The position numbers were made by a program, and so were the translations under genes. From positions 113,881-177,880 of the IMG/VR virus record IMGVR_UViG_3300035670_013228: a stretch of DNA of 64,000 nucleotides, one strand, 5' to 3'. Positions 1-62,191 of this stretch are shown piece by piece (within the stretch, counting starts at the first letter, position 1; every line of letters begins with the position of its first letter). This stretch comes from a virus. Under the pieces are notes generated by a model that made no database searches, was not told the DNA's origin, and saw only the letters and a list, made by a program, of their open reading frames with translations.

Positions 1-479
1 AAAGAGTTAATATGTTCGATTCCAATATTTTTCCAATCTGATACAATCTTGTCGGCAATAACAAGCTTGTCGGCAATAAAAGATCCTAAATGTCCACAGA
101 TACAGACTAGATCACCTCTAACGTATTCTTTTAATAAGGACAAATCTAATCTTGGTTTATGATAGTAAAAATTGGGTCTGTTAGATAAAGAAACAATTTC
201 TATTAAATTCTTCCATCCTCTGTAATTTTTGGCCAAAACCAGTAAATGGCTTAGTTTTTTATTTTCCTTAGTTTGAACAGAAGCATCGTCGGAAGCGATA
301 TATAGCTCACAGCCAATAATAGGCTTGATGCTATTCTTCTTCATTTCTGTATAAAACTTAATAGCTCCAGAAATATTTCCATGATCTGTTAGTGCGCATG
401 ATTTTGCATTAATTTCCAAACATCTATCGGCGATTTGATGAGGTTGAGAAAGTCCATCCAATAGTGAGTAATGAGTCAC
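1..479 (-). CDS. dnaE: DNA polymerase III alpha (DnaE-type), PHP domain; main body, runs off the left window edge
   Basis: Manual translation from GTG at 479 gives (V/M)THYSLLDGLSQPHQIADRC...ALTDHGNISGA...KPIIGCELY...HLLVLAKNYRGWKNL...YHKPRLD, with no stop down to base 1. These are classic DnaE PHP motifs. Not in the supplied ORF track. Confidence 0.9.
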   Translation of the reverse strand, partial: MTHYSLLDGLSQPHQIADRCLEINAKSCALTDHGNISGAIKFYTEMKKNSIKPIIGCELYIASDDASVQTKENKKLSHLLVLAKNYRGWKNLIEIVSLSNRPNFYYHKPRLDLSLLKEYVRGDLVCICGHLGSFIADKLVIADKIVSDWKNIGIEHINS

Positions 480-523
480 TAGGAATGGACATGAAGAGGA
501 ACATACGTTCTTCTCATATCCAT
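479..523 (-). CDS. 14-aa N-terminal segment of DnaE (MDMRRTYVPLHVHS), out of frame with the body
   Basis: ATG at 523 follows an AG-rich RBS (GAAAGGA). It encodes the LHVHS start of the PHP HxH motif, then TAG at 481-479. Confidence 0.75.
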   Translation of the reverse strand: MDMRRTYVPLHVHS

Positions 524-575
524 TATATTTTTATCCTTTCCTTTTCTAAAGATCTGTCAACTATTTATAACAAAA

Positions 576-1622
576 CTATTCGGCACTACCCGGAGCTTTG
601 TACTGTCCTACATTATACCCCGGAGCTTGGTATTCGTCAACCACCACATCTATGCCCTTAACCGATATGTCGTGATGAACTTGTTCGCACATTGTCATAT
701 GTTCACCAAGTGGTGTAATCTGATTTTCTCTATATTCTATTATGGGAAGATGATTGGTATTATTAAATGTATTTTTGCCAAAATGACATAATTTTGTACA
801 TTTCCAGCTTTTGTTTAGTTCTGGATTAGTAGTATTTTTTATGGTTTCAAATTTATTCTTTAACATATTTTCAATTTTAGATATATGAGACTTGTCAAAA
901 CAGATCGAAAACATACCACCATCATTAATAAAATATATAGACACTATAACATATTTAGCATCTGGGTATAATTTATGTACAGCATAGTAGTAGAGCATTA
1001 GTTGTGGATCTTCATGTAGTTTTGCCAAGGTTTTTTCCTGACCGGTTGCCCAATCTAATCTCTTGCCGGTTTTATAGTCTATAATTTCTAGTGTATCGTC
1101 ATTGACGCGCGCTATTAGATCCATAGTTCCTTTAATAGCTAAGTACCCATTAATTTGTCCCGTTTTAGTTTGATAATTATATTTAGCCCATTCTTTTTTT
1201 ATTTCTATATCAAAATGCTGTTCTGGTTGTACAATATTTTTATTCCTAGGATCAAATATGCCATCAGAATAATTAAGGGCTTTAAAAATCCATTTTTTGC
1301 ATTCATTATAGTCGGCTGCCGACCACTCATGATGATTAAATTTTGATATGTAATAATCGTATACTTTTTCTATAATTAGATTAATATCATAATTATTAAT
1401 ATCTATTATACCCAATATTTCTGTATCATTATAGTACTGTTGATTATTTTGATCACACAATTTTATATGTGCAAGAATTTCGAAAACTTTGTGACATATA
1501 GTACCTTTATCTGCTTTTTTGTTGGATTTAGATTTTATCCCAAGAACATATTCGAACATATATTGCATAGGACACATGGAGTGTGTTCCGTAACTGGAAC
1601 TTCTTAGATATGTGATAATCAT
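576..1622 (-). CDS. PD-(D/E)XK (Cas4/RecB-like) exonuclease
   Basis: KGTMDLI...IIDYKTG motif and QLMLYYYA, plus an N-terminal Cys and C-terminal CTKLC...C resembling a Cas4-like Fe-S staple. Confidence 0.85.
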   Translation of the reverse strand: MIITYLRSSSYGTHSMCPMQYMFEYVLGIKSKSNKKADKGTICHKVFEILAHIKLCDQNNQQYYNDTEILGIIDINNYDINLIIEKVYDYYISKFNHHEWSAADYNECKKWIFKALNYSDGIFDPRNKNIVQPEQHFDIEIKKEWAKYNYQTKTGQINGYLAIKGTMDLIARVNDDTLEIIDYKTGKRLDWATGQEKTLAKLHEDPQLMLYYYAVHKLYPDAKYVIVSIYFINDGGMFSICFDKSHISKIENMLKNKFETIKNTTNPELNKSWKCTKLCHFGKNTFNNTNHLPIIEYRENQITPLGEHMTMCEQVHHDISVKGIDVVVDEYQAPGYNVGQYKAPGSAE

Positions 1623-62108: not shown

Positions 62109-62191
62109 TGAGATTGGAGGGAGTCGAACCCTCACGCCTATTAGGCAATAGATTTTGAGTCTATCGTGTATTCCAGTTCCACCACAATCTC
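62109..62191 (-). tRNA. tRNA-Leu(CAA), type II, CCA not encoded
   Basis: GAGATTG/CAATCTC acceptor stem, ATAGA-CTCAAAA-TCTAT anticodon arm, GCCTAATAGGC variable arm, GAGGG-TTCGACT-CCCTC T arm. Confidence 0.95.

Follow-up and report, generated by a model that had tools for sequence, protein, structure and literature searches.

The window analysed here, 64,000 nt long, spans 113881-177880 of a virus record of 177,880 bp, whose completeness CheckV puts at 100%. Its first bases belong, on the minus strand, to dnaE, which in this phage occupies a three-gene region (L002:2029-6360; G000 110028-114359) lying mostly before the window start. The order is a 615-aa ORF with the PHP and palm domains, a 184-nt spacer, a 228-aa RNase_T/DnaQ-like exonuclease, a 538-aa part with fingers, HhH and OB, and an SSB gene. 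The 538-aa part and the exonuclease gene share 4 nt. The split falls at a clean domain boundary, and Pfam returned no match to an intein in the split dnaE. Pfam matches to the 615-aa ORF are PHP (6.3e-36) and DNA_pol3_alpha (1.1e-73); with the finger match (7.4e-49), the DnaE domain set of PHP, palm, fingers, HhH and OB is present, and the match to Thermus aquaticus DnaE reaches 3.2e-86. Across the genome, the Pol III alpha match is single and no family A or B polymerase was detected: DnaE is the phage's only recognisable replicase. Upstream of dnaE stands a PD-(D/E)XK nuclease gene (576..1622, minus strand), which is found beside intact and split dnaE alleles alike and is not the homing endonuclease considered below. 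The phage's sole tRNA gene is a tRNA-Leu (anticodon CAA; window 62109-62191, minus strand; G000 175989-176071), and no tRNA-Ser is encoded in the genome.

As annotated, the 615-aa ORF (3..479, minus frame) starts from GTG 479 and begins MTHYSLLDG. Its match to the PHP profile begins only at profile position 6, meaning that the first strand of the domain is absent from this ORF. Residue 2 (Thr, encoded by ACT) aligns with Thr14 of Thermus aquaticus DnaE, in HQHTQFSLLDG, and in the same alignment all seven other PHP metal-ligand motifs, including TDHGN, GxE, H, C and DxH, are found downstream. PHP beta-strand 1 with its HxH metal ligands is instead encoded by codons 7-14 of a 14-codon mini-ORF directly upstream (MDMRRTYVPLHVHS; 482..523, minus strand; ATG 523-521). 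With every other ligand motif in place, the HxH encoded by the mini-ORF is part of a metal site that is otherwise complete.

The junction between the two reading frames is compact. The mini-ORF ends with the Ser14 codon TCC (482..484, minus strand), the candidate take-off codon, which is followed by the stop codon TAG (481-479) and two further nucleotides; read from the window sequence, these form a coding gap TAGTG (477..481, minus strand). A GTG in the downstream frame (479-477, minus strand) overlaps the stop as TAGTG and is a candidate restart codon. Next comes ACT (474..476, minus strand), the candidate landing codon, at the Ser/Thr position of the HxH[ST] motif, and after it the minus strand reads CAT, TAC, TCA, CTA, TTG, GAT and GGA. 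The resumed N-terminal part of DnaE (1..473, minus strand; PHP and Pol III alpha palm), whose resume codon is CAT 473-471, runs past the window start. Deletion of the 8 nt at 481-474 yields LHVHSHYSLLDG (HVHSHYSLLDG), as in intact relatives. The initial annotation had described this as an 8-nt stop/start insert in the PHP motif whose removal restores the motif, and as a description of the sequence this is right on all points. An alternative genetic code was considered and discarded, since in the upstream frame TAG is followed by TGA, and TAA as well as TAG are found out of frame. A sigma-70-like promoter at 550-522 (minus strand; TTTAGA, 17 nt, TATAAT; 10/12), whose -10 box overlaps the ATG of the mini-ORF, is not conserved in relatives and probably reflects chance.

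A protein-seeded scan of viral contigs yielded 80 related loci, 66-93% identical. The majority of these have an intact start, e.g. MKKYIPLHVHSMYSLLDG, which overlaps the upstream nuclease gene by ATGA, and a subset has a stop codon directly after HVHS, as in the window (hereafter split alleles). A DNA pattern of the PLHVHS codons followed by a stop retrieved 58 viral contigs; this pattern fixed the 3′ arm of hairpin SL1 (see below) together with the stop, so that independent information in this set comes solely from the gap, the opposite (5′) arm of SL1 and the codons that follow the gap, and its YTN would also admit Phe. A metagenome scan blind to the junction recovered 10 split alleles among ~70 loci. 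Identical TAGTGACT was found in L195, which stems from a separate metagenome assembly and is 97% identical over the 374 residues covered, and L003/L210, 93% identical, carry the same insert as the window. The presence of the gap in independent assemblies and in a large family of related phages means that the insert is neither an assembly error nor a one-off mutation private to this genome, the two outcomes that the initial annotation had named as refuting. Cultured phages are distant from this group: blastn of the module against 50,697 phage records gave no match, and the closest cultured-phage DnaE proteins are ~35% identical. Among prokaryote genomes there is one match only, L220 (NZWA01000066.1), a 9.4-kb contig in a Flavobacteriales MAG whose DnaE N-part is 77% identical; it may point weakly to the host, or the contig may have been misbinned.

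Together, the split alleles comprise 41 distinct junction sequences, which fall into 21 gap types. In all of them the proposed take-off position is occupied by TCT or TCC, and the codon after it is TAA or TAG; TGA never serves as the gap stop codon in any split allele, which may reflect the pairing of TAG with the Leu codon CTA, and of TAA with TTA or CTT, in hairpin SL2. Stop plus spacer measure 3, 5, 6, 7, 8 or 9 nt, and all three frame offsets occur. Immediately ahead of the His or Met at which the motif resumes stands TCT, TCC or TCA in 17 of the 21 gap types, ACT in three (including the window) and GCT in one. Re-pairing at this Ser-like codon would restore HVHS[H/M][Y/F]SLLDG exactly in all 21 types. 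Correspondingly, 67 intact alleles read HxHS[HM]YSLLDG, and the split alleles match this once the stop, the spacer and one Ser-like codon are removed. The gap type of the window is shared by L003 and L195 and resembles the TAACG-ACT and TAAGTG-ACT types.

Upstream of the gap, PLHVHS varies only synonymously, with five Leu codons, CAT or CAC, and TCC or TCT in use; some of these sequences stem from the DNA pattern, which itself fixed the codons concerned apart from admitting Phe, but the unbiased sets agree. This pattern of codon change indicates that the mini-ORF is translated. Given the synonymous-only variation of PLHVHS, the intact remaining ligands and the detection of no DNA polymerase other than DnaE in the genome, the HxH strand must be made.

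Two hairpins set the split alleles apart. The first to be recognised was SL2 (462..481, minus strand), in which the 5′ arm TAGTGA (481-476) is the exact reverse complement of the 3′ arm TCACTA (467-462) across a loop at 475-468; the hairpin over the stop that the initial annotation had proposed is thereby borne out. SL2 pairs the stop and gap with the Ser-Leu codons of YSLLDG and has a stem of 5-8 bp in 30 of 31 variants. Its partners track the synonymous codons: CGA is matched by TCG, AGA or GGA by TCT, GTGA by TCAC, TAG by CTA and TAA by TTA. As gap length shifts the register and fixed alignment columns are therefore unusable, SL2 was tested by permuting native against chimeric arms. The longest stem averaged 5.95 bp for native arm pairs versus 4.18 bp for chimeric ones, and the observed pairing total was reached by 0 of 10000 permutations, a test that does not correct for relatedness.

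The second hairpin, SL1, lies within the mini-ORF. Its 5′ arm, ATGGATATG (515..523, minus strand), consists of the start codon and two further codons and pairs with the 3′ arm, CATGTCCAT (485..493, minus strand), which comprises the His-Val-His codons and ends directly 5′ of the take-off codon; in general form, the mini-ORF opens with ATGGAYRTG, and these nine bases are reverse-complementary to CAYGTCCAT. In 37 distinct sequences, 333 of 333 cells of this outer helix are paired, with compensatory changes at two pairs: one pair is GC in 25 sequences, AU in 11 and GU in one, and the start-codon pair is AU in 36 and GC in one, the latter being a GTG start matched by CAC. RNAalifold recovers the outer helix unaided. 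An inner helix joins codons 4-6 to the Pro-Leu codons; it is only 68% paired under a single register because the register differs between lineages. Sliding the partner by 1-3 columns lowers pairing across the two helices from 86% to 34-48%. SL1 also explains why split alleles carry an MD[MV]xxx N-terminal extension that is absent from every intact allele. For the 74 nt at 453-526 of the window the folding energy is -25.5 kcal/mol (z = -4.27), a value reached by 0 of 200 shuffles, and the same frame gives means of -26.9 kcal/mol (z -5.2) in 37 split alleles and -7.8 kcal/mol (z +0.3) in 43 intact alleles, which possess neither SL1 nor SL2.

The reading that best accommodates these features is a short programmed translational bypass left behind by a homing-endonuclease cassette, which on the comparative sequence evidence appears fairly probable. 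The ribosome would translate the 14-codon mini-ORF and pause with peptidyl-tRNA-Ser on TCC 484-482 and the stop codon TAG in the A site. The peptidyl-tRNA would then detach from the mRNA, the mRNA would slide by 8 nt, and the tRNA would re-pair at ACT 476-474. Decoding would restart at CAT 473-471, giving one polypeptide with the normal LHVHSHYSLLDG PHP motif. SL1 and SL2 are likely the signals for this hop. While TCC occupies the P site, SL1 would have its 3′ arm in the E site and the exit channel, its 5′ arm and inner helix being already outside; zipping of SL1 behind the ribosome could draw out up to ~9 nt of mRNA once codon-anticodon pairing is lost, a pull that would match hop lengths of 6-12 nt. 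SL2 would keep the stop and gap in its 5′ arm, acting as a take-off stem-loop. A conserved Shine-Dalgarno-like element before the landing codon is not evident. Programmed bypassing of a stop held in a stem-loop, as in T4 gene 60, was among the explanations offered in the initial annotation, and it alone gives one product for all 21 gap types; SL1, the endonuclease link and the imperfect match between take-off and landing codons are additions of the present analysis. Several points speak against a hop. The duplicated Ser codon may simply be left over from the origin of the insert and carry no re-pairing signal, and SL1 buries the start codon of the mini-ORF, which should reduce initiation. In the window allele, moreover, the ACT landing codon matches TCC at only two of three positions (the second and third, one of them by G-U wobble), and an in-frame GTG overlaps the stop; this allele type could have drifted towards stop-start reinitiation.

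That GTG allows a different scheme, in which translation terminates at TAG, the 14-aa HxH peptide is released, the ribosome restarts at GTG 479-477 and the peptide docks non-covalently as PHP beta-strand 1. The window allele suits this scheme well, its GTG overlapping the stop in the downstream frame and its landing codon ACT not being a Ser codon; GTG is likewise in frame in the 5-nt (TAGTG only), 6-nt (TAAGTG) and 9-nt types, as is ATG in the GCT type. The family fits it poorly. In 19 of 29 signature variants, the stretch from the nearest in-frame stop to YSL contains no ATG, GTG or TTG in the downstream frame; the TCT TAGGTGAA TCT type (L069) and the TCT TAA TCT type (L079) both lack a downstream start, in L079, L109 and L140 the stop is itself in frame with no start after it, and L104 has a TGA in the downstream frame directly before the landing codon. 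In the 7- and 8-nt classes, the two most diverse, the GTG after the stop is out of frame, and its frequency is accounted for by base-pairing to TCA, the Ser codon, and the C after it. Neither is there a Shine-Dalgarno-like sequence before the GTG, a 14-aa strand working in trans would be unprecedented for PHP domains, and the duplicated Ser/Thr position would have no role. The separate coupled peptide suggested in the initial annotation therefore has its restart codon in the window allele but lacks one in most variants; restarting is a serious rival for the window allele, yet overall it seems unlikely. A -1 or +2 frameshift at CAT-TCC-TAG, or readthrough, would instead separate HVHS from HYS by 2-4 additional residues in the DnaE product. 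A stop in the A site beside an RNA structure is a classic frameshift context, and in the window a -1 shift reads HVHS-LVT-HYS without a stop. The relatives would nevertheless require three mechanisms (+1, -1 or +2, and readthrough of TAA or TAG), as their offsets are 0, 1 and 2; this is what leads to rejection at the family level of the -1 frameshift adding LVT that had been proposed from the window sequence. The TGA of L104 lies in the shifted frame, no slippery sequence or heptamer is present, and none of >100 intact homologues or solved DnaE structures has an insertion at the HVHS-HYS point, all of which makes recoding of this kind very improbable.

Two further explanations dispense with recoding altogether. 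The cassette may have truncated dnaE, leaving the HxH unused and a polymerase without PHP metal site 1 that relies on the DnaQ-like exonuclease. Such tolerated damage would be in keeping with the separate RNase_T/DnaQ-like exonuclease gene between the two DnaE parts and with the degenerate PHP site of E. coli-type DnaE. It sits badly, however, with a YxPLHVHS that has changed only synonymously across lineages down to ~66% N-part identity, with an HYSLLDG conserved in frame downstream though many alleles lack a start codon, and with PHP ligand motifs that all remain intact, so that we regard it as improbable. Alternatively, the 8 nt might be removed from the RNA before translation, by a micro-intron or by processing and ligation, and the location of the gap within a conserved hairpin could be taken in that sense. 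Yet the segment is the 5′ arm of a stem rather than a loop or bulge, its length ranges from 6 to 12 nt when one Ser codon is included, excision of such a segment is not known from any splicing system of bacteria or phages, and an Rfam scan of 380-620 returned only a chance miRNA match (E = 5.6). Removal at the RNA level is hence hardly credible.

Returning to programmed bypassing, the relatives also hint at where the gap came from. In L087, L109 and L121, a ~240-aa HNH-type endonuclease gene lies between the PD-(D/E)XK gene and dnaE (L087:795-1520, L109:1316-2050 and L121:5203-5922). The encoded protein, which has a helix-turn-helix at its N-terminus and is rich in Cys in its middle region, gives matches to PHROG endonuclease and HNH families (1e-22 to 1e-12). 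The closing codons of the gene, KYGRE-stop, overlap with the mini-ORF's ATGGACGTG, the stop falling within the first codons of the mini-ORF. Where the endonuclease is missing, ~20 nt of its 3′ end persist, among them the AAGGAG that precedes the mini-ORF, and all split alleles have an AAGGAGA...ATAAAG-type leader that is near-identical to the endonuclease 3′ end of these three relatives. The leader of the window (524..545, minus strand), A-rich and with a Shine-Dalgarno-like AAAGGA at 539-534, bears a loose resemblance to about the last 20 nt of the relatives' HNH gene; it is short and more diverged than in the other split alleles. No homologue of the L087-type endonuclease is present in the window's genome, which counts against the proposed origin. 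In most split alleles, the PD-(D/E)XK gene ends 74-167 nt before the Tyr codon, too close for a further gene to fit in between. Several other loci have more distant HNH homologues at different positions.

On a tree of the polymerase body the split state requires 10 changes, at least 6-7 of which are forced by well-supported branches, and a single clade of split alleles is rejected (AU test, delta lnL 546, p-AU ~1e-77). Intact alleles do not have the MD[MV] extension and so cannot have arisen simply by losing the gap; an exchange of the 5′ module is required. Sliding identity between the window and L004 and L065, computed to look for recent recombination, was uninformative at a background identity of 60-80%. 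Among intact alleles, L015 carries a 194-aa methyltransferase gene (Methyltransf_24; L015:2387-2968) and L080 a 104-aa ORF with no family assigned (L080:2513-2824) between the nuclease gene and dnaE, and the junction of these two genes hence appears to be an insertion hotspot. It is proposed that the 5′ module, consisting of the leader, the MD[MV]xxx extension and the gap, is the remnant of a putative HNH homing-endonuclease cassette upstream of dnaE. The gap probably also destroys the target site of the endonuclease.

Taken together, the evidence tips somewhat in favour of a broader proposal, namely that the sole polymerase gene of these uncultured aquatic phages harbours a diversified family of programmed hops of 6-12 nt, which would be driven by SL1 and SL2 and would have been spread by, and then have outlived, an HNH homing endonuclease. 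It would constitute an independent, miniature counterpart of T4 gene 60 in ~20 gap-length variants.

If true, this would be a second phage family of bypassing, in which the gaps are much shorter, both hairpins clearly co-vary and gap length comes in many natural variants, and thus a ready-made series for testing how pairing of the exiting mRNA and structures at the A site shift the ribosome without decoding. It would also mean that a recoding element introduced by a selfish endonuclease can persist in an essential gene. In practical terms, gene callers will show split dnaE genes as N-terminally truncated or without the HxH ligands, and the combination of an endonuclease with a tiny stop-led gap may account for other phage genes that appear broken.

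A full-text literature search found no published report of bypassing in dnaE. The recoding papers cited here name only three natural cases of programmed bypassing: gene 60 and its homologues, the yeast mitochondrial byps and the Hau3 candidate (PMC10732093; bioRxiv 10.1101/2022.08.31.505936). The byp elements of Magnusiomyces capitatus mitochondria are 27-55 nt long, have spread like GC clusters and place an unassigned sense codon in the A site (bioRxiv 10.1101/2022.08.31.505936). With these the dnaE gaps would share the character of mobile, hairpin-forming inserts in essential genes that are bypassed during translation, while differing in cellular setting, in length and in the A-site codon.

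Closer in size is the terminase gene of Streptomyces phage Hau3, a candidate for a 10-nt bypass triggered by UUA (Antonov et al., PMC10732093), for which the bypass junction peptide was detected by mass spectrometry upon expression in E. coli (PMC10732093). Both cases combine a short gap (7-10 nt), an essential phage gene and flanking RNA structure, and in both the intact homologues argue against frameshifting. The A-site codon of Hau3, however, is the rare sense codon UUA, for which a regulatory role was proposed, whereas that of dnaE is a stop, and the dnaE element additionally has two co-varying hairpins and an apparent link to an endonuclease cassette.

Ribosomes can also hop over stop codons in simpler settings. 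Low-level stop-hopping in E. coli reporters, with hops of +6, was reportedly described by Weiss et al. in 1987 (cited in PMC10732093). CUU UAG CUA is a specific example. Such reporter hops are unprogrammed, occur at ~1% efficiency and were seen in synthetic contexts. The proposed dnaE hop would resemble them in that peptidyl-tRNA re-pairs a few nucleotides past the stop, and the TCT TAA TCT of L079 has exactly this form; in contrast, dnaE is a natural essential gene with dedicated, conserved structures.

The closest parallel is gene 60 itself, with its matched take-off and landing codons, a stop after take-off, a take-off stem-loop, a MobA homing-endonuclease cassette and a 5′ stem-loop whose formation on exit has been proposed to propel the mRNA forward (bioRxiv 10.1101/2022.08.31.505936; 10.1101/2024.12.09.627546). 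The two systems differ in gene and phage group and show no evident sequence similarity. The dnaE gap measures 3-9 nt, for a hop of 6-12 nt, against 50 nt in gene 60; it comes only 14 codons in, with the nascent peptide still wholly in the exit tunnel; the proposed landing codon lies in the loop of the take-off hairpin; the conserved Shine-Dalgarno-like element 6 nt before landing has no counterpart; and the endonuclease has been lost from most split alleles, that of the window included. Nonetheless, as in gene 60 (Huang 1988; Manning & Atkins; Wills et al.), the proposed landing codon is, in most gap types though only at two positions in the window, similar or identical to the take-off codon, and a conserved protein would be exactly restored. 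An HNH-type endonuclease gene stands immediately upstream of the interrupted gene (for dnaE, in three relatives), and the position of the gap near the beginning of the gene that follows, its patchy, non-clonal spread and the frequent loss of the endonuclease all recall the MobA/gene 60 arrangement.
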